64,000 nucleotides of DNA from assembly GCA_034189385.1 (NCBI GenBank), contig JAXHVD010000013.1:68259-132258 (forward strand). Direction: 5' to 3'. The position numbers were made by a program, and so were the translations under genes. This DNA is from Thermodesulfobacteriota bacterium. Its GTDB lineage: Bacteria; Desulfobacterota; Desulfobacteria; Desulfobacterales; C00003060. The notes below the pieces were generated by a model. The model made no database searches. It worked only from the letters and a program-made list of their open reading frames with translations, and was not told where the DNA came from. Of this stretch, positions 13,736-43,624 are shown piece by piece (position 1 is the first letter of the stretch; every line of letters begins with the position of its first letter).

Positions 13736-14710
13736 TCACAGCCACTTTATCCGCTTGAACCATCCCACCAATAGTACTGCAAGGCCCACAAGGCCTAGAG
13801 CCACGATAGCAAAGGCCCATTTGTATTCTGCTCCCGGAATACCGCCGACATTGATCCCAAGCAGTCCTGTAAGGAGCCCCAAGGGCAAGAATATGGCCGC
13901 TACGATGGAAAGCAAGTACATGGCCTTGTTCATCTGTTCCGACAAACGGTTGTTCAGTTCTTCCTGGGTGACAGCAGCATGCTCACGGGCTGAGTCAATA
14001 TCTTCAACAAAACGTGCCGTGCGTTCCCATACCTCGCGTATGTGCGCTTTGTCCATGTCATCCAGCCATGGAATGCGTTCATTCTGCAACCGTGCAATAA
14101 CATCCCGCTGAGGGGCCACATATCGCCGCAGACTGATGGTCTGGCGCCGCAGGTCGGAAAGCTTGGGTCGTAGTTCCTTGCTTTCGGCAGTGAGCACTGT
14201 GTCTTCCAGTTCATCTACGCTGTCGTCAATTTCAGCCACCACGTCTCCCATCCGGTCTGTTATGCGACGGCAGACCATGATCAGAAAATCAGCCGAAGAG
14301 GTAGGCCCTGTACCGGACTTGATCGCGTTGCCAATGTCGTCAATGGCCATCACGCGCCTGTGTCTCATAGATAGGATGCGATGTTCGGTAAACAACATGC
14401 GCAATGAGACCATATCCTCAGGATCGGCTCCGGGGTTGCAGTTTACCCCCCGCAGTATCAAAAGGAGGCCCTCCTCAGAAAAGACGCAACGGGGCCGTGT
14501 CTCCTCTGCAAGCAAGGATTCCGATAATATGGAACTAAGGCCGCTGTCGTCCGATAACCATTTTTGAACTTTTTCATTGGCATAATCAAGGTGCAACCAC
14601 AGTACCCCTTGCTCCGCAGACCACTGCTTGACTCCTTTCCAATCGATAGCTTGGCCGCCACCCTGACCATCGAGGACATACGCAAATACGAGGCCTTCCT
14701 GTTCGTTCAT
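13736..14710 (-). CDS. zntB: Zinc transporter ZntB (CorA superfamily), copy 1
   Basis: 324 aa. The C-terminal TM pair carries the ZntB-type motif LTGLLGINVGGIPG and the ending ...WFKRIKWL. RBS AAGGGAGGGA. Confidence 0.9.
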   Translation of the reverse strand: MNEQEGLVFAYVLDGQGGGQAIDWKGVKQWSAEQGVLWLHLDYANEKVQKWLSDDSGLSSILSESLLAEETRPRCVFSEEGLLLILRGVNCNPGADPEDMVSLRMLFTEHRILSMRHRRVMAIDDIGNAIKSGTGPTSSADFLIMVCRRITDRMGDVVAEIDDSVDELEDTVLTAESKELRPKLSDLRRQTISLRRYVAPQRDVIARLQNERIPWLDDMDKAHIREVWERTARFVEDIDSAREHAAVTQEELNNRLSEQMNKAMYLLSIVAAIFLPLGLLTGLLGINVGGIPGAEYKWAFAIVALGLVGLAVLLVGWFKRIKWL

Positions 14711-14775
14711 GTTCCGTCCCTCCCTTGGATTGAAGCCCCATGTTTAAGTTGCCGCTGACGAAAACCCATGATCGG

Positions 14776-14804
14776 AATCTAATGGATGCCACAAGACCTG
14801 TCAA
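14776..14804 (-). promoter_or_regulatory. Putative sigma70-type promoter of zntB copy 1
   Basis: On the minus strand: TTGACA (14804-14799), a 17-nt spacer, then TAGATT (14781-14776), about 65 nt upstream of the zntB ATG. Confidence 0.4.
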
Positions 14805-15538
14805 ACACCGGACCTGAATCCAGCCAGATTGCCCACATCATGGCCCTTCCGTCTCATTGCGTGGGGGAAACCCGTCTCAGTACATGGAAAGAAAAGGGCC
14901 ATCCATTTCCTACTCCTTTGCGACGTTTCCCCCACTTGACATTCCTCTGCAATGTATGTAAGCAAAATGCAGACACACCTCTGGAGGGCAGCGAAGACTT
15001 TTTCCCCAGACGGCTTCTGGCAGCGTGCGCCTCTGCATGACTGGTCATTTTTCAGTGTTTTGCGTTGTTGGTCAACACAAGGGTTCGGGGTGAGTTGAGT
15101 TTCTCGTATGGAGGAGGGGTGAATGCGAGTGACTTTGGGACAACGCAATGGCCCAGCTTTGTTACCCCCTCTTTGTGCCCATATGGCACGTGAAATATTG
15201 CTCAACCAGGGGCTACCAATCACAGTGCCTCCTTTCCATGCCACCGGCCGCAGTGACGGCCAAGCAATCTACCTTTGTGGCGAAGAAGAATCACGACCCC
15301 ACCCTGTTTGCAGGCCTTTTCGCACACCTGCCGGCTCCGTCCGGGGTCGGATTGAGAGATGCCCTAATTATCTTAAACCGTTAGGCGAATCGCCGGCACA
15401 ATGTGCGCCTGTTGAAACCCTATGGGGCCGACCTCATCCCTTTGTGATCCATGGAATCGGAATGAAGACACGGGGGCTCAAGCATGGGTGGTCGTCCATG
15501 TTTGTGGCAAGTCTGGTGGAGCGCCCTGGAGAAGATAT

Positions 15539-15568
15539 CTGACAAGACTGACAAGCTTCAAATATACT
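15539..15568 (+). promoter_or_regulatory. Putative sigma70-type promoter of hsp20
   Basis: CTGACA (15539-15544), an 18-nt spacer, then TATACT (15563-15568), about 45 nt upstream of ATG 15614. Both hexamers are lost in the second repeat copy, which lacks hsp20. Confidence 0.35.
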
Positions 15569-16246: not shown

Positions 16247-16381
16247 ATGGCAAATGTCAAGAAGGTCGGTGAAGTGTATAGATGTGAAGTCTGCGGGAAT
16301 GTGGTCGAGGTGAAGGAGGTTGGCGGAGGGGAGCTGGTCTGTTGCGGCCAAGCGATGATATTGGAAAAGGGAGGCAAATAG
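16247..16381 (+). CDS. Desulforedoxin (44 aa, Fe(Cys)4 protein)
   Basis: [44 protein letters not shown] has the C-x2-C ... C-C pattern of desulforedoxin and the desulfoferrodoxin N-domain. RBS AGGAGG. The longer ORF-track start 16082 is unsupported. Confidence 0.8.
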
Positions 16382-16441
16382 GAGGTCTCTTATGTCACAG
16401 GAAAAAACGCGAATGAAAGAGTCGATAGACTGGAGGAGATA

Positions 16442-36754: not shown

Positions 36755-37729
36755 TCACAACCATTTTATCCGCTTGAACCATCCCACCAATAGTACTGCA
36801 AGGCCCACAAGGCCTAGAGCCACGATAGCAAAGGCCCATTTGTACTCTGCGCCTGGAATGCCGCCAACATTGATCCCGAGCAGTCCGGTAAGGAGCCCCA
36901 AGGGCAAGAATATTGCCGCTACGATGGAAAGCAAATACATGGCCTTGTTCATCTGTTCCGACAAACGGTTGTTCAGTTCTTCCTGGGTGACAGCAGCATG
37001 CTCACGGGCTGAGTCAATATCTTCAACAAAACGTGCCGTGCGTTCCCATACCTCGCGTATGTGCGCTTTGTCCATGTCATCCAGCCATGGAATGCGTTCA
37101 TTCTGCAACCGTGCAATAACATCCCGCTGAGGGGCCACATATCGCCGCAGACTGATGGTCTGGCGCCGCAGGTCGGAAAGCTTGGGTCGTAGTTCCTTGC
37201 TTTCGGCAGTGAGCACTGTGTCTTCCAGTTCATCTACGCTGTCGTCAATTTCAGCCACCACGTCTCCCATCCGGTCTGTTATGCGACGGCAGACCATGAT
37301 CAGAAAATCAGCCGAAGAGGTAGGCCCTGTACCGGACTTGATCGCGTTGCCAATGTCGTCAATGGCCATCACGCGCCTGTGTCTCATAGATAGGATGCGA
37401 TGTTCGGTAAACAACATGCGCAATGAGACCATATCCTCAGGATCGGCTCCGGGGTTGCAGTTTACCCCCCGCAGTATCAAAAGGAGGCCCTCCTCAGAAA
37501 AGACGCAACGGGGCCGTGTCTCCTCTGCAAGCAAGGATTCCGATAATATGGAACTAAGGCCGCTGTCGTCCGATAACCATTTTTGAACTTTTTCATTGGC
37601 ATAATCAAGGTGCAACCACAGTACCCCTTGCTCCGCAGACCACTGCTTGACTCCTTTCCAATCGATAGCTTGGCCGCCACCCTGACCATCGAGGACATAC
37701 GCAAATACGAGGCCTTCCTGTTCGTTCAT
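36755..37729 (-). CDS. zntB: Zinc transporter ZntB (CorA superfamily), copy 2
   Basis: The protein is identical to copy 1. About 12 nucleotide differences, all synonymous, are confined to the last ~180 nt of the gene. Confidence 0.9.
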   Translation of the reverse strand: MNEQEGLVFAYVLDGQGGGQAIDWKGVKQWSAEQGVLWLHLDYANEKVQKWLSDDSGLSSILSESLLAEETRPRCVFSEEGLLLILRGVNCNPGADPEDMVSLRMLFTEHRILSMRHRRVMAIDDIGNAIKSGTGPTSSADFLIMVCRRITDRMGDVVAEIDDSVDELEDTVLTAESKELRPKLSDLRRQTISLRRYVAPQRDVIARLQNERIPWLDDMDKAHIREVWERTARFVEDIDSAREHAAVTQEELNNRLSEQMNKAMYLLSIVAAIFLPLGLLTGLLGINVGGIPGAEYKWAFAIVALGLVGLAVLLVGWFKRIKWL

Positions 37730-37794
37730 GTTCCGTCCCTCCCTTGGATTGAAGCCCCATGTTTAAGTTGCCGCTGACGAAAACCCATGATCGG

Positions 37795-37823
37795 AATCTA
37801 ATGGATGCCACAAGACCTGTCAA
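37795..37823 (-). promoter_or_regulatory. Putative sigma70-type promoter of zntB copy 2
   Basis: The sequence is identical to 14776-14804 (TTGACA-17-TAGATT on the minus strand). Confidence 0.4.
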
Positions 37824-38645
37824 ACACCGGACCTGAATCCAGCCAGATTGCCCACATCATGGCCCTTCCGTCTCATTGCGTGGGGGAAACCCGTCTCAGT
37901 ACATGGAAAGAAAAGGGCCATCCATTTCCTACTCCTTTGCGACGTTTCCCCCACTTGACATTCCTCTGCAATGTATGTAAGCAAAATGCAGACACACCTC
38001 TGGAGGGCAGCGAAGACTTTTTCCCCAGACGGCTTCTGGCAGCGTGCGCCTCTGCATGACTGGTCATTTTTCAGTGTTTTGCGTTGTTGGTCAACACAAG
38101 GGTTCGGGGTGAGTTGAGTTTCTCGTATGGAGGAGGGGTGAATGCGAGTGACTTTGGGACAACGCAATGGCCCAGCTTTGTTACCCCCTCTTTGTGCCCA
38201 TATGGCACGTGAAATATTGCTCAACCAGGGGCTACCAATCACAGTGCCTCCTTTCCATGCCACCGGCCGCAGTGACGGCCAAGCAATCTACCTTTGTGGC
38301 GAAGAAGAATCACGACCCCACCCTGTTTGCAGGCCTTTTCGCACACCTGCCGGCTCCGTCCGGGGTCGGATTGAGAGATGCCCTAATTATCTTAAACCGT
38401 TAGGCGAATCGCCGGCACAATGTGCGCCTGTTGAAACCCTATGGGGCCGACCCCATCCCTTTGCGATTCATGGAATCGGAATAGAGATATGTGGCTCAAG
38501 GATCGGTGGGCGTCCATGTTTGTGGCAAGTCTGGTGGGTGGGGCACGCTGGAGAAGACATCTCACAAGACTTCAACATAAAGAGGACAGACTTGACGGCT
38601 TCGTAAAAAGTCGAAAAACACCTCTTTCTTTCATTTAACTTCTGG

Positions 38646-38685: not shown

Positions 38686-38786
38686 GACAAATTATGACAC
38701 AGCCTCGAAAGCTGGGCACGTAGTGGCTCTTTTTAGGCCGTGAGGCGCAACCCTAAGCCCTATCCAGTCCTTTCAACAAGTTCTGG

Positions 38787-38807: not shown

Positions 38808-38966
38808 GGTGATTCAAGGACTTTTTGCGACGCTGTCAACGTTAAGAAGGTGGGAGAAATCTACAGATGCAAAGCCGGTGGGAATGTCGACGAGGTGCTG
38901 GAGGTCGACTGGGGGAAACTGGTATGCTGCGGCCAACCAATTGTATTGGAAAAACCAGGAGAATAG
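38787..38966 (+). CDS. Desulforedoxin-like small ORF with a degenerate metal site (possibly a pseudogene)
   Basis: The frame reads ...AVNVKKVGEIYRCKAGGNVDEVLEVDWGKLVCCGQPIVLEKPGE*, compared with dx at 16247 ([43 protein letters not shown]). The second Cys of C-x2-C is replaced (CKAG). The only in-frame ATG (38787) lies inside a palindrome. Confidence 0.4.
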   Translation: MPDQVRHGDSRTFCDAVNVKKVGEIYRCKAGGNVDEVLEVDWGKLVCCGQPIVLEKPGE

Positions 38967-38976
38967 GAGGTACACC

Positions 38977-40014
38977 ATGTCACAAGCGAAGCCAGGAATT
39001 AATCGTAGGGATTTCATTAAGTTGGGGGCACTCGCTGCTGGCGGGGCGGCTCTTTCAGGAAGGATACCCTTTGCGCAGGCCGCTGGCACAAGCGAAGAGC
39101 CTGACAGCCCCATCTATTTGGCCCTCAACATGTCTAAAGTGGCCAACAACGAGGAGAGCTTTCGCCTGATGAAAAAAGTCGGTCCCAAGGTGTGCATCAC
39201 CACGGCCTCCCATCCCGGATTTGTAGGATTTCAGGCCAACATCCAGACCGGCATCCTCCCCTTAGCTGGTCGGTATGGTGGAGGAAAGGTGCACATGGAA
39301 AAAGAACTCAACCCCATTCGCAACTACCAGTATACCATGTGGAAACGATGGGAAGATCATGACGATTTTCATGCCAAACAATTCAACAGGACCTTTGAAC
39401 TGTGCGGCAGTTGTCTTTCCATGGTCGTTGAAGGGCCGTGGGAGCCTGTGTACAGGATCGTGAAGGCCAAAATGCCTCCCGTGCGGTCCATGGGTCAGAT
39501 TACCGACCTTGGAGTCGACATGCAGCACAAAAAAGAGTTTATCCGTTTTGCCACCCCCATGCGCTGTGTAGCCATGGCAGAGCACACGGTGAAGACTGGC
39601 AGAGAGGCTGATTTTGAACAAGGGGCCATTGCCACCATGGAGGCCCTGTCCGATTCCACAGGATTTCTCGGGTACATGATTCTAAAGCAGATGGGCGTTT
39701 GTGCCTTGGGGAGTTTCATGCTGGATCCCCAATCCATGGGGGAGGCATTGCAGACTCTGGGCGCGAATCCTCCAAAAGATCCCAAACCCCTTTTCAAGAC
39801 ACCCGAGGCCATGCCGAGCCCTCCGGAGTACCTGATCCATACTGAATGGGACGCCGTGGAGATGGCCCGACTCGGTTTTGCCAAGGTCCTGGTCAATCAC
39901 AGGATCAAGAAAATACATGACGATGGGGTCATGGCACACCTTATGCGGGGACCGTACATCATGTTCTTCCAGCCTATGATGGAAGAGCCGGGCTGGCGGG
40001 CCATGCTTGGGTAG
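38977..40014 (+). CDS. sor: Sulfur oxygenase reductase (SOR) homologue with a Tat signal peptide
   Basis: ATG 38977 follows TAGGAGG. The Tat leader is [35 protein letters not shown]. The mature part matches SOR ([49 protein letters not shown]; YGPYI-like [13 protein letters not shown]). The 79 codons upstream in the ORF track are rejected. Confidence 0.85.
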   Translation: [345 protein letters not shown]

Positions 40015-40075: not shown

Positions 40076-40609
40076 ATGAATATGAATCAGACGGCCGGTC
40101 AAAGCGCTTGGAACCCTTATTTGGCAGGCATCTTAAGTGGCTTGGTCCTTGTCCTGTCGGTGTGGGCTTCAGGCAAGTACTTTGGGGCGTCAACCACCTT
40201 TGTTCGCTCCGCAGGCCTCATTGAAAGAGTCTTCACTGCCGAGCGGGTAGCCAAGATGGATTATTTCGTAAAAGAAGTGCCTCAGATCGACTGGCAGTGG
40301 ATGTTTGTAGCAGGCATTTTTTTCGGGTCTCTCTTAGGATCGACCACCTCCGGCAGCTTTCGATGGAAGGCTGTGCCGGACATGTGGGCCGGACGCTTCG
40401 GGCCTAGCCGGTTGAAGCGTGCCGCAGCAGCCTTTCTCGGAGGGCTGGTTGCCATGTTCGGGGCTCGTCTGGCCGATGGGTGACCGAGCGGCCATGGGCT
40501 GGGCGGGTCGGTTCAGCTGGCGGTAAGTGCCTATATTGCTTTGGTCTGCTTCTTCATGGGCGGCATCATCATGGCACGCATCCTCTACAGAGGAGATGGC
40601 CAGAGATGA
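40076..40609 (+). CDS. YeeE/YedE-family sulfur-transport protein, N-half, candidate selenoprotein (UGA at codon 136)
   Basis: ORF 40076-40483 stops at TGA within ...FGARLADG-TGA-PSGHGLGGSVQLAVSAYIALVCFFMGGIIMARILY.... The frame then stays open to TGA 40607-40609, which overlaps the next start (ATGA). The UGA sits where the family has the conserved Cys of G-C-x-S-G-H-G. Confidence 0.6.
40498..40517 (+). promoter_or_regulatory. SECIS-like hairpin downstream of UGA 40481
   Basis: GCUGGGC (40498-40504) pairs with GUUCAGC (40511-40517), giving 5 Watson-Crick and 2 G-U pairs. The apical loop GGGUCG contains GGUC at nt 26-29 from the U of UGA. Confidence 0.4.
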
Positions 40610-41133
40610 CAATCCTAACATACGGTTTGGTCACAGGGGTGCTTTTTGGCTTCTTCTTGCAGAAGGCCAGGGTCATTCGTTATGACAAGCAGCTCGGTGC
40701 CCTGCGCCTGAAAGACATGACAATCGTCAAGTTCATGTTTTCCACCGTCTTGACCGGGATGGTTGGCGTGTACCTATTTGTGGATCTCGGCTTGGCCCAA
40801 CTTTCTGTTAAAACGACAGTCTTGGGCGGCAACATCCTTGGCGGATTGATTTTTGGTCTTGGCTGGGGTTTACTGGGCTACTGCCCTGGCACAGCAGTGG
40901 GTGCCTTGGGTGAAGGCAGATGGGACGGGTTGTGGGGTGTCCTTGGCATGCTTGCTGGTGCGGCGCTCTTTGCCGAGGCCTATCCGATTTTCAAGGGGAC
41001 CGTTCTCACGTGGGGCGCTTTCGACAAGATCACCCTACCTCAGATTCTGAGGGTGAACCATTGGATTGTCATCGGCCTCTTTGTTGTCGGAGGATTGAGC
41101 CTCTTTGGGTGGTTTGAAAAGAAGGGCTTGTGA
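40606..41133 (+). CDS. YeeE/YedE-family sulfur-transport protein, C-half
   Basis: 175 aa with four TM helices and the motif GLGWGLLGYCPGTAVGALGEG. Its start overlaps the stop of the extended upstream gene. Confidence 0.8.
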   Translation: MTILTYGLVTGVLFGFFLQKARVIRYDKQLGALRLKDMTIVKFMFSTVLTGMVGVYLFVDLGLAQLSVKTTVLGGNILGGLIFGLGWGLLGYCPGTAVGALGEGRWDGLWGVLGMLAGAALFAEAYPIFKGTVLTWGAFDKITLPQILRVNHWIVIGLFVVGGLSLFGWFEKKGL

Positions 41134-41292
41134 TTGCTGCACGGCTCTGCTCAGGGTTTTGGACAGAGAAGGGAAAACTGGACGAAGCTGTCCACGGAAC
41201 GTGGGCCTTTTTGAAAATAAGGGTCCTTTTTATATGTTGCCGGTTTTGAGAAACGAGAACCAAGGCCTGAAGGGATCTTCTCCGAGGATGTC

Positions 41293-42318
41293 ATGGCACT
41301 TCGTTTGATTGAAATAGTCCTTCCTGAGGATACGGCAAAGGAGGTCCAAGACGTCTTGGAAGAATCTCAGGTCAACCAGGTGTGGCTCGAGAAAAATTCC
41401 GACAAACAGATTCTTATACAGTTGCTTGTCCCGGCACAAAAGTCGGAAGCTGTGTTGGACGTGTTAGAAAAGCGCTTTTCTACACGAGAGGGTTTCACTA
41501 TTGTACTTCTGCCAGTCGAGGCAGCCTTGCCCCGATCAGAGGAGCCTGAACCAGAATCTTCATATCCGGAAGACCAAGCATCTTCGGGAGAACCTGCACA
41601 GACGAAAATAGGGCGCATATCCCGTGAGGAGCTGTACCATGACGTACTCGATGTTACCCAGTTTTCCAAGGTGTTCTTTGTCATGGTCGTCCTGTCGTCT
41701 TTGGTGGCAGCCATTGGGATTCTGCGAGACAATGTTGCTATCATTATAGGGGCAATGGTCATCGCCCCGCTGCTGGGGCCGAACGTGGCTCTTTCTCTGG
41801 CCACCACCCTGGGAGACGAGAAGCTGGGTCGGACGGCGTTGAAGACCCTGTTAGTCGGTATTTTGGTCGTCACAGCGGTCTCTGTTTCTGTGGGCGTTTT
41901 CGTCCCATTTGATATTACAACTCTTCATGAAGTTATCACCAGAACTGAAGTGGGGTTGGGAGATATTGCCCTTGCCTTATCATCTGGAATGGCTGGCACG
42001 TTATCCTTCACGACAGGCCTCTCAACCACATTGATCGGTGTCATGGTGGCCGTGGCCTTGCTTCCACCTCTGGTGACGTTTGGACTACTATGCGGCGCTC
42101 ATGAGATCTCTATGGCAATGGGTGCCCTGCTGCTCTTTGTGACCAACGTTGTCTGTATCAACGTTTCAGGGGTTGCCACATTTCTGATACAAGGCGTCCG
42201 GCCCATATCATGGTGGGAAGCGACCACTGCGAAAAGGGCAACCCGGAAGGCCATGCTCATTTGGGGGCTGTTGCTTGTCGCCCTTGTCTTGTTGATTCTC
42301 TTTTCCCAGAGGGCGTGA
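41293..42318 (+). CDS. DUF389 / TIGR00341-family membrane protein
   Basis: The N-terminal soluble domain (MALRLIEIVLPEDTAKEVQDVLEE...) is followed by the hydrophobic DUF389 domain (IIIGAMVIAPLLGPNVALSLA...). Confidence 0.7.
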   Translation: MALRLIEIVLPEDTAKEVQDVLEESQVNQVWLEKNSDKQILIQLLVPAQKSEAVLDVLEKRFSTREGFTIVLLPVEAALPRSEEPEPESSYPEDQASSGEPAQTKIGRISREELYHDVLDVTQFSKVFFVMVVLSSLVAAIGILRDNVAIIIGAMVIAPLLGPNVALSLATTLGDEKLGRTALKTLLVGILVVTAVSVSVGVFVPFDITTLHEVITRTEVGLGDIALALSSGMAGTLSFTTGLSTTLIGVMVAVALLPPLVTFGLLCGAHEISMAMGALLLFVTNVVCINVSGVATFLIQGVRPISWWEATTAKRATRKAMLIWGLLLVALVLLILFSQRA

Positions 42319-42394
42319 GCCTGACCGAAATGTGCCAGATTGACTAACAATTTCGATGATTTATTTTCTTACACATTCATTGAAGGGGACTATT

Positions 42395-43255
42395 ATGTCG
42401 GACGTCATTGCCATCATTTTGGGCCGTCTAGGAAAGATATTCGACCCGCAGTCCTTGGGCAATCTTCTTGTCGGTTGGCTGATGAACCTGGTTGTGGCCA
42501 TGGCAATTATGGCAGCCTTCTACTTGTTGTGGCTCATGGCAAAGGTGGTTCTGGGCTTCACGCTACGCCGGAAAGTCGATCCAACGAGTTTTTCCTTTAT
42601 TGAAACCATTCTTAAGTTCTCTCTGTTAATCATCGGGGTCATCACAGCACTGGATTCTGCCGGCATCAAAACCTCGGCCCTGTTGACGTCACTGGGCATT
42701 GCGGGGCTGACCATCGGATTTGCTGCACGGGATGCCCTTTCCAATCTCATTTCAGGCATCCTGATCTTCATTGATCGCCCCTTTGTCCTCGGCGATCTGG
42801 TGGAGATTGACGGTGCCTACGGCAAGGTCGAGCGCATCACCCTGCGGTCGACGCGGGTAGTGACTTCCGACGGCCGGATGTTGGCCGTGCCCAATACGGA
42901 AATCATCAACAAGACTGTGGCATCTTATACAAATTTTCCCCATCTTCGTCTCGATGTCGGCGTGACCGTCGGTGTCAAGGAAGACCTGGAGCAGGTCCGC
43001 CAGCTGTTGCTGGCGCTGCCGAAGGACGATCCCGCCTTTCTTGACGATCCCGCCCCACGGGTCGTGGCGACAGCGCTCAATGACTACAATGTCGCCATGG
43101 AACTTCAGGTCTGGCTTGACGATGAGCGCCGTCACGTTGAAAAACGTTATGAGTTGCGGGAAAAAGTATTCAATACGCTAACGCGGGCAGGTGTGGACTT
43201 GCCTTTCGAAACGCTGCAACTACAACCTGTTGACGTCAAGGTGCACGGGCAGTAA
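42395..43255 (+). CDS. Small-conductance mechanosensitive channel (MscS family)
   Basis: ATG 42395 follows GAAGGGGA. Three TM helices are followed by the MscS beta-domain signature NLISGILIFIDRPFVLGDLVEIDGAYGKVERITLRSTRVVTSDGRMLAVPN. Confidence 0.85.
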   Translation: MSDVIAIILGRLGKIFDPQSLGNLLVGWLMNLVVAMAIMAAFYLLWLMAKVVLGFTLRRKVDPTSFSFIETILKFSLLIIGVITALDSAGIKTSALLTSLGIAGLTIGFAARDALSNLISGILIFIDRPFVLGDLVEIDGAYGKVERITLRSTRVVTSDGRMLAVPNTEIINKTVASYTNFPHLRLDVGVTVGVKEDLEQVRQLLLALPKDDPAFLDDPAPRVVATALNDYNVAMELQVWLDDERRHVEKRYELREKVFNTLTRAGVDLPFETLQLQPVDVKVHGQ

Positions 43256-43267
43256 GGCCGGCAGCTG

Positions 43268-43624
43268 TTTGTGGATCTTGGCTTGGTCCAACTTGTTGTT
43301 AAAGCGACAGTTGTAGGCAGCAACATCCTTGGCGGATTGATTTTTGGTCTTGGCTGGGGTTTGCTGGGCTACTGTCCTGCCACAGCAGTGGGTGCCTTAG
43401 GAGAAGGCAGATGGGACGGGTTGTGGGGTGTCCTCGGCATGCTTGCTGGTGCGGCCCTCTTTGCCGAGGCCTATCCGGTTTTCAAGGGGACCGTTCTCGC
43501 GTGGGGCGCTTTTGACAAGATCACTCTGCCTCAGATTCTCCGGGTGAACCATTGGGTTATCATGGCTTTGTTTGTTGTTGGAGGAGTGAGCCTTTTTGGG
43601 TGGTTTGAAAAAGGGAGGCTCTGA
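43268..43624 (+). pseudogene. Truncated duplicate of the yedE C-half gene (last 117 codons only)
   Basis: ~90% nucleotide identity to 40777-41133 at an offset of 2491. It begins immediately after the mscS stop and has no RBS or native start. The ORF-track Met is an in-frame GTG. Confidence 0.75.

Follow-up and report, generated by a model that had tools for sequence, protein, structure and literature searches.

What would a sulfur oxygenase reductase (SOR), the textbook self-contained, cytoplasmic, sulfur-disproportionating oxygenase of aerobic extremophiles, be doing outside the cytoplasm of a bacterium of the sulfate-reducer phylum, which would be expected to avoid oxygen? The question is raised by the sor gene of a Thermodesulfobacteriota metagenome-assembled genome (MAG; GenBank assembly GCA_034189385.1), which lies in a stretch of 64,000 nucleotides of contig JAXHVD010000013.1, called the window below. 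The gene product is a member of the SOR family by sequence, catalytic residues and fold, and its N-terminal extension has the features of a twin-arginine (Tat) signal peptide. It is very probably an exported SOR-family enzyme, most likely one that works outside the cytoplasm of its host. The best overall explanation, which we consider probable, is that sor encodes a true non-haem-iron enzyme of the SOR type whose precursor bears a cleavable twin-arginine signal.

The window protein is a full-length SOR

The gene and the elements on which the argument leans are, in window coordinates:

38977 to 40014, + strand: sor, precursor of a predicted Tat-targeted sulfur oxygenase reductase family protein, 345 residues plus stop (ATG at 38977, stop codon at 40012-40014)
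38966 to 38970, + strand: Shine-Dalgarno sequence GGAGG, 6 nt 5' of the sor ATG, read from the sequence
38977 to 39081, + strand: predicted Tat signal peptide, residues 1 to 35 (n-region, RR motif, Ala/Gly-rich h-region, R29, AQA), from TIGR01409 and a 72-sequence logo
39001 to 39021, + strand: twin-arginine core N-R-R-D-F-I-K, residues 9 to 15, from the sequence and the logo
39082 to 40011, + strand: mature SOR domain, residues 36 to 345, from alignments
39358-39360, 39370-39372 and 39442-39444, + strand: iron ligands H128, H132 and E156, equivalents of Acidianus ambivalens His86, His90 and Glu114
39193-39195, 39403-39405 and 39412-39414, + strand: active-site cysteines C73, C143 and C146, from alignments
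39367-39369, 39700-39702 and 39718-39720, + strand: clade-specific F131, C242 and M248, from the alignment of the clade against canonical SORs

Profile searches confirm the homology over the whole mature length that had been proposed from the sequence alone. The Pfam model for SOR (PF07682) matches residues 46 to 341 with positions 2 to 300 of its 300, scoring 474 bits against a cutoff of 25 (E-value 1.8e-142). The closest solved relative is the SOR of Halothiobacillus neapolitanus (6qpa, E-value 1.4e-92, named via Foldseek); the A. ambivalens enzyme (2cb2) is found at 2.4e-75, and the SORs of A. ambivalens, A. tengchongensis and Sulfurisphaera tokodaii (6m35, 7x9w) fall between 1e-72 and 1e-77. 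Because the HMMER alignment to A. ambivalens SOR runs without a gap from residue 47 to residue 148, at a constant offset of 42, Cys31, His86, His90, Cys101, Cys104 and Glu114 of that enzyme correspond to C73, H128, H132, C143, C146 and E156. All six catalytic residues thus stand at the identical spacing that the original prediction had given them. They are invariant in 32 members of the anaerobe-MAG clade described below, and in a 67-sequence family alignment that includes the archaeal and Firmicutes enzymes this holds for five of them, with C143 conserved at 90% or more.

Structural modeling agrees with the profile match. An AlphaFold2 monomer model built from the 67-sequence alignment has a mean predicted local distance difference test score (pLDDT) of 89.2, with low confidence in the first ~40 residues apart from a helix at residues 10 to 26. 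A shallow alignment of 32 sequences had given an unusable model (pLDDT 43.7), and canonical SORs had to be added to obtain a good one. The model adopts the SOR monomer fold, a duplicated ferredoxin-like α/β barrel, and Foldseek superposes it on 6qpa, 2cb2, 3bxv and 6m35 with target-normalised template modeling (TM) scores of 0.90-0.92 and root-mean-square deviations (rmsd) of 2.0-2.5 Å. Identity to the characterised enzymes in these structural alignments is 40-46%.

Comparison with the two best-matched references shows where the window protein departs from them. It aligns over its full length with H. neapolitanus SOR and shares the same six catalytic residues (TM 0.90, rmsd 2.5 Å); unlike that 314-residue protein of an aerobic sulfur oxidiser, which has no signal peptide, it carries a 35-residue Tat leader, differs at F131, C242, M248 and other positions, and comes from a Thermodesulfobacteriota MAG. 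With A. ambivalens SOR, the archetype of the family, it shares the equivalently spaced catalytic residues (TM 0.92, rmsd 2.0 Å) at ~40% identity, whereas that enzyme is archaeal, thermoacidophilic and a cytoplasmic 24-mer; F133 and F141 of its hydrophobic chimney are replaced, as read from the alignment, by Ile175 and Met182. The anaerobe clade has 24 positions, each conserved within it at 90% or more, at which the aerobic SORs differ. F131, between the two iron-binding histidines, replaces the Met of the aerobic enzymes, and C242 is a fourth conserved, clade-specific cysteine where canonical SORs have Ser. Relatives carry the NCBI name 'sulfur oxygenase reductase family protein'. The recent eight-chain 'SOR' entry 9rdn was set aside as uninformative for the clade, being a distant branch (P0138 cluster) with 33% identity to the query.

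A conserved twin-arginine leader

The N-terminal extension passes the NCBIfam Tat domain model TIGR01409 (20.5 bits against a cutoff of 16.7). A regular-expression scan of the window in six frames returned a single canonical RRxF[LIVM]K motif followed by a hydrophobic stretch, the sor leader itself. At least 71 further clusters at 90% identity, among the best 120 of 259 protein-search matches, carry such a leader, which is thus a trait of a large clade and not of the window gene alone. When these 71 and the window protein were aligned on their arginines, all 72 had RR and, at +4, M, I, L or V, while 71 had F at +3 and 65 had K at +5, so that the RR leader is kept in the orthologues. An Ala/Gly/Leu h-region follows, then a c-region with K or R in 38/72; of the 72 sequences, 48 have Ala at position -3 and 56 at position -1, giving the consensus [MIL][DN]RRxF[MIL]K[LM]AALAAG...AxA. 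By these features the leader is of textbook Tat architecture, down to the basic 'Sec-avoidance' residue, and cleavage by signal peptidase I is predicted after A35. The extension had originally been described as ~40 residues long with a canonical RR motif, an h-region and an AxA site; those three elements stand, and the length is corrected to 35 residues up to AxA. The mature N-terminus is only ~9 residues longer than in A. ambivalens SOR. At one further locus, from an uncultured Desulfonema sp. MAG (L016), the leader has VNRKHFKK, with R-K in place of the two arginines.

Translation of this leader is well supported by comparison of the genomic loci. An in-frame ATG at codon 52 would allow a mis-called start, with translation from the Met of LALNMSK and the RR stretch left untranslated, but this has next to no probability. 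A start at M52 would delete the first β-strand (model residues 47-55), which is found in all solved SORs, whereas an ATG at the aligned position with GGAGG, GGAG or AGAGG at equal distance is found in 17/17 Tat-type loci (that of the window plus 16 genomic ones). In pairwise DNA comparisons, differences per site at the three codon positions amount to 0.35/0.20/0.58 over leader codons 2 to 36 and 0.11/0.06/0.48 over the mature part, against 0.68/0.64/0.66 in the 60 untranslated nt 5' of sor. From this periodicity the leader is translated and under purifying selection, weaker than that on the enzyme, and its protein-level conservation agrees; the faster divergence of the leader than of the mature part is typical of signal peptides. 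The start therefore lies upstream of the RR motif, the position that the original prediction had exposed to refutation. In the loci of leaderless relatives, in-frame stops lie just upstream of the gene and no leader remnant is found; the leader is therefore a discrete, selected module. An ORF (open reading frame) extended to a GTG at 38740 was rejected as a merely mechanical maximum. By eye, CTGGGCACGTAGTGGCTC at 38708-38727 (+), ~250 nt 5' of sor, shows sigma-54-like GG-N10-GC spacing; a consensus scan of the + strand upstream of sor found no sigma-70-like promoter.

Distribution of Tat-type and leaderless SORs

A scan of one genome per species yielded 59 sor loci, all but one in MAGs or single-cell assemblies; the sole cultured match was Sulfoacidibacillus thermotolerans, at 46% identity. 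Hosts of Tat-type sor belong to Desulfobacterales, Desulfatiglandales, 'Thermodesulfobacteriaceae', a SEEP-SRB2 bin (PQXE01000020) and similar Desulfobacterota bins, with one locus labelled Myxococcota and one Pseudomonadota. The window's own FtsH is a 100% match to a protein from a MAG entered at NCBI as Thermodesulfobacteriota bacterium. Leaderless forms at 71-82% identity were found in Syntrophorhabdus, Smithella/Smithellaceae, Syntrophaceae, Anaerolineales, Sumerlaeota, Planctomycetota and some Desulfobacterota bins. The Desulfobacterales MAG CAYPSZ01 holds two sor loci (L013 and L047), of which one is Tat-type and the other has a match that starts only at residue 109.

A search seeded with an Acidianus-type SOR retrieved the SORs of the characterised lineages, namely Acidianus, Sulfuracidifex, Sulfolobus/Sulfurisphaera, Sulfobacillus, Sulfoacidibacillus, Alicyclobacillus, Hydrogenisulfobacillus and Thiobacillus, all of 306-326 residues and leaderless. 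The statement that characterised SORs are cytoplasmic and lack a leader is upheld by these lengths and by the literature, in which SOR is described as cytoplasmic and SOR genes are noted in Desulfobacterota MAGs (PMC12345210); the window SOR departs from this trait of all characterised members. The family as a whole is small, since an exhaustive HMMER search of 1.84 billion representatives found 95 SOR clusters at 50% identity, few of them full-length. The anaerobe-MAG clade makes up all 120 matches listed of the 259, and the Acidianus-seeded search gave ~45 clusters outside the clade among the matches listed; most SOR-family clusters in public data thus appear to belong to the anaerobe-MAG clade.

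Within this clade the two forms are mixed. A neighbor-joining tree of the mature domains, which lacks robustness at such similarity, interleaves Tat-type and leaderless sequences, with 9 parsimony changes and a leaderless root state. A single origin of the leader is not upheld by this tree. The leaderless form would be ancestral, and the leader would have been added within the anaerobe clade, with perhaps more than one gain or loss. The leaderless SORs, 75-85% identical in the mature domain, share the clade-specific residues of the Tat-type proteins and often lie beside the same split transporter pair; unlike them, they have no leader and stand in a cluster with soxB-like and tauE genes.

A split YeeE/YedE transporter and other genes beside sor

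Downstream of sor the window encodes:

40076 to 40609, + strand: pmpA-like half of a split YeeE/YedE transporter, 177 residues, probable selenocysteine (Sec) at TGA 40481-40483 (GUPSG), PF04143 profile positions 170-280
40606 to 41133, + strand: pmpB-like half, 175 residues, GYCPG motif, PF04143 profile positions 16-145, plus DUF6691
41190 to 41235, + strand: two overlapping terminator-like hairpins with T-runs, from a consensus scan only

The pmpB-like ATG overlaps the pmpA-like stop as ATGA, and the hairpins likely mark the end of a sor-pmpA-pmpB operon. The pair has the make-up of the PmpAB type: two halves of PF04143 of ~130-180 residues, each with one conserved Cys or Sec position. PmpA and PmpB are described as two halves of a YeeE-type transporter, each of four helices and with a single essential Cys, and the downstream genes resemble them, and TsuA/YeeE/SoxT, in encoding the C- and N-terminal halves of PF04143 with one such position apiece (PMC11582611). 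Unlike PmpA/PmpB, the window pair probably has selenocysteine in place of the PmpA-type Cys and appears operonic with SOR. YeeE imports thiosulfate (PMC7449682), and a passage of PMC11582611, citing PMC10812762, reports that PmpAB-type relatives import zero-valent sulfur. The TsuA models of NCBIfam score far below cutoff on the window pair.

Mechanical ORF calling ends the pmpA-like gene at 40483 (135 residues). In the alignment, 5 orthologues have a conserved Cys at the position of this TGA (TGC or TGT; GARLxGG-C-PSGHG) and 6 loci have TGA, and conservation of the frame continues for 41 codons beyond the TGA, up to the stop, which points to a probable selenoprotein. A hairpin predicted right after the UGA as a selenocysteine insertion sequence is unsupported (z -0.39, one compensatory pair only), so the assignment rests on the Cys/TGA alignment and the conserved frame. 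A GUxSG selenoprotein family of YeeE/YedE type is already listed in a 2026 review (PMC13188914).

The association with sor extends well beyond the window. A pmpAB-like pair adjoins Tat-type sor in at least 10 loci (the window, L001, L004, L006, L023, L043, L060, L064, L066 and L067) and lies upstream of leaderless sor in five (L018, L020, L022, L026 and L029). Tat-type loci also carry genes resembling oxygen- and thiol-stress functions, namely ferritin-like, SufC, SufBD, secreted MauG/CCP-like, DUF255 thioredoxin-like, glutaredoxin-like and FTR-B-like proteins, and in L065 a catalase gene lies ~6 kb downstream of sor. The leaderless genes stand in a different setting, a cluster ordered pmpA-pmpB-sor-soxB-like-tauE/safE-soxB-like-CitMHS/TrkA_C permease (L018, L019, L020, L022, L026, L029 and L046). 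Its first SoxB-like hydrolase (483 residues, no signal) scores 355 bits with TIGR04486, whose cutoff is 550, and the second has 505 residues. This gene content implies cytoplasmic action with sulfite export for the leaderless SORs, and the cluster appears to be an undescribed cytoplasmic sulfur module of MAGs of syntroph and Anaerolineales type. In one Tat-type locus (L011) a SoxB-like gene directly follows sor.

Proposed export and function of the enzyme

How the protein works, from export and cleavage through O2 dependence, substrates and products to the direction of the PmpAB-like transporter and the oligomeric state, we infer from these comparisons. The SOR would fold and take up Fe in the cytoplasm, be exported through Tat as a monomer or small oligomer, be cut by signal peptidase I after AQA35 and act in the periplasm on zero-valent sulfur or polysulfide. 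Uptake of the metal during cytoplasmic folding is the usual reason for Tat routing of metalloproteins. Tat-exported proteins fold in the cytoplasm and retain the metal gained there, as shown for MncA of Synechocystis, a Tat-exported mononuclear-metal enzyme whose metal is trapped in cytoplasmic folding (PMC4192464); MncA is an analogue and not a homologue, a cupin of unrelated fold that binds Mn and performs no sulfur chemistry.

The most likely chemistry would be the cofactor-independent reaction known for the family, oxidation of S0 with O2 and H2O to sulfite, together with disproportionation to sulfite and sulfide, with thiosulfate forming non-enzymatically; the biochemistry itself may be ordinary SOR chemistry. 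Since no NAD(P)H, ATP or partner protein is needed, the reaction could run outside the cytoplasm; Kletzin in 1989 and Urich in 2006 are said to have described SOR chemistry without an external cofactor. In a cell of sulfate-reducer type, such as one at an oxic-anoxic interface, O2 would be removed at the envelope before reaching the cytoplasm, and insoluble S0 would become soluble sulfite and thiosulfate. The selenocysteine PmpAB-like channel could then carry these products, or sulfane sulfur, over the inner membrane for dissimilatory reduction. SOR requires molecular oxygen and conserves no energy (PMC12345210). We place this specific O2-consuming, product-harvesting role a little short of an even chance.

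Weighing the alternatives

Several findings weigh against an exported, O2-consuming SOR. The Tat-type members all derive from metagenomes or from MAGs of uncultured organisms, and the hosts are anaerobes living where O2 is scarce, among them the SEEP-SRB2 MAG E20SeepSRB2 (L043), which, from its name alone, we take to come from an anoxic methane-oxidising enrichment. The NCBIfam equivalog model for SOR (NF047630) scores 309.5 bits, below its cutoff of 400, so the curated rules do not assert the same function. The entries 6qpa and 7x9w hold 24 chains each. SOR 24-mers are, by our own reckoning, hollow spheres of ~870 kDa and 15 nm, far too large for Tat, so that assembly would have to follow export or the clade would have to assemble differently. 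The pmpAB-like pair also accompanies leaderless, presumably cytoplasmic SORs and therefore does not tell which species is moved or in which direction. The cultured S0 disproportionator whose genome was checked in the literature, D. hydrothermale, has no SOR (PMC8780430). On the leader itself, the Pfam TAT_signal model (PF10518) gives 21.6 against a threshold of 22.7, 1.1 bits short, and tatA and tatC were not recognised among the annotated window ORFs, no search having been aimed at them.

The last two points would fit a leader that is an uncleaved membrane anchor, or one that is non-functional, with the enzyme staying in the cytoplasm like other SORs. So would the existence of leaderless paralogues and orthologues at 75-85% identity, interleaved on the tree; the mature enzyme evidently works without a leader. 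We rate this as very improbable. The entire signal architecture, including Ala at -3 and -1 and the basic c-region residue, is kept in 72 sequences, the leader is under purifying selection, its short Gly/Ala-rich h-region is unlike a transmembrane anchor, and a useless 35-codon extension would not survive at 69-96% overall identity. There is similarly little probability that the protein is an exported SOR-fold enzyme for another substrate, such as organic persulfides, polysulfanes or selenium species, which would make the SOR name misleading. The low equivalog score, the 40-46% identity to characterised enzymes and an adjacent selenoprotein transporter half, of a family also linked to selenium transport, lean that way, but the catalytic residues are all retained, the fold matches at 2.0-2.5 Å, and the SoxB-like hydrolases and TauE/SafE sulfite exporter of the leaderless sister clusters point to inorganic sulfite and thiosulfate chemistry.

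An exported SOR could also work without O2, as a periplasmic disproportionase of zero-valent sulfur or polysulfide, or with another oxidant, yielding sulfite and sulfide at the envelope. In favour of this are the confinement of the clade to MAGs of anaerobe lineages (Desulfobacterota, including the SEEP-SRB2 locus L043, Syntrophorhabdus, Smithella, Anaerolineales and Sumerlaeota), the clade's own substitutions near active-site residues in the sequence (F131 for Met, C242 for Ser) and a passage of PMC8780430 that gives the first step of anaerobic S0 disproportionation as unknown. Against it stands the strict conservation of the 2-His-1-carboxylate iron site that O2-activating enzymes typically have. 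The neighbours, moreover, resemble oxygen- and thiol-stress genes and not energy-conserving modules, and the D. hydrothermale result counts here as well. To our knowledge, going back to Kletzin in 1989, characterised SORs are inactive without O2. SOR is likewise stated to need molecular oxygen (PMC12345210), and we regard an O2-free reaction as unlikely. It is also quite unlikely that the Tat-exported SOR is the missing extracytoplasmic zero-valent-sulfur enzyme of strictly anaerobic Desulfobacterota, including partners of methane-oxidising archaea, acting without O2 or at trace O2 and feeding sulfite, thiosulfate or sulfane sulfur through the selenocysteine PmpAB into dissimilatory sulfite reduction. 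An O2-dependent SOR with a cleavable Tat signal is the reading we prefer.

Duplications and other features of the region

Immediately upstream of sor lies a remnant of a small redox protein gene:

38838 to 38976, + strand: decayed desulforedoxin paralogue, without start codon and CxxC, translation KKVGEIYRCKAGGNVDEVLEVDWGKLVCCGQPIVLEKPGE followed by a stop, compared with the intact copy at 16247-16375

The ribosome-binding site of sor is provided by the 3' end of this remnant. The relative L060 shows the remnant as well, with in-frame stops, and in L061-L063 an intact 50-residue desulforedoxin gene lies directly 3' of Tat-type sor. Farther upstream, a direct duplication of 1.8 kb at 98.2% identity (13736-15549 and 36755-38571) comprises a CorA gene and ~840 bp of ORF-poor DNA. 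Its first copy is followed by HSP20, the intact desulforedoxin gene (16247-16375, +) and a sor-like start of which the first ~26 nt are present (16392-16417), and its second by the desulforedoxin remnant and the full sor operon; the duplication reflects either a genuine rearrangement of the segment or an error in assembling the MAG. By composition, two ORFs within the upstream region, 37820-38263 (-) and 38142-38606 (+), seem to be non-coding, and 14801-15542 holds a second copy of each. Rfam gave no match at gathering thresholds anywhere in the window; for the 1.2-kb ORF-poor region upstream of sor, a scan by E-value returned chance-level hits alone and blastn against plasmids found no match.

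Downstream, a 347-bp copy (90% identity) of the pmpB-like 3' end is found at 43265-43611, corresponding to 40774-41120, after genes for DUF389/TIGR00341 and MscS proteins (41293-43255). In L060, a 96% identical relative, an M48 peptidase gene comes directly after the pmpB-like gene, and for this reason the DUF389 and MscS genes look like an insertion flanked by a duplicated target.

Implications

Literature searches combining SOR with Tat, signal peptide, periplasm, Desulfobacterota and anaerobes, including work from 2023 on, found no description of an exported SOR. What would be new is the place of a known enzyme, both its compartment and its physiological setting, across a whole clade. In Bohai Sea sediments, 33 of the 39 SOR-bearing MAGs are Desulfobacterota, and sor transcripts rise on sulfide addition (PMC12345210). 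The textbook view of SOR changes in several respects: the anaerobe clade holds most of the family's sequence clusters in public data, a large part of it is equipped with a Tat leader, and the gene is associated with genes for a sulfur channel and for oxygen- and thiol-stress functions. A specialist in sulfur metabolism would find an exported SOR surprising, and the hypothesis is directly testable.

If the enzyme is indeed extracytoplasmic, its location would explain how it makes contact with insoluble sulfur and would raise the puzzle of how a 24-mer cage forms after Tat export. It would also provide cofactor-free removal of O2 at the envelope of a sulfate reducer, yielding sulfite and thiosulfate, both superior to sulfate as electron acceptors. 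Should the reaction instead proceed without O2 or at trace O2, an 'aerobic' enzyme family would mostly serve anaerobic sulfur cycling. The window gene is a clonable candidate for a SOR-type role in sulfur turnover at oxic-anoxic interfaces.

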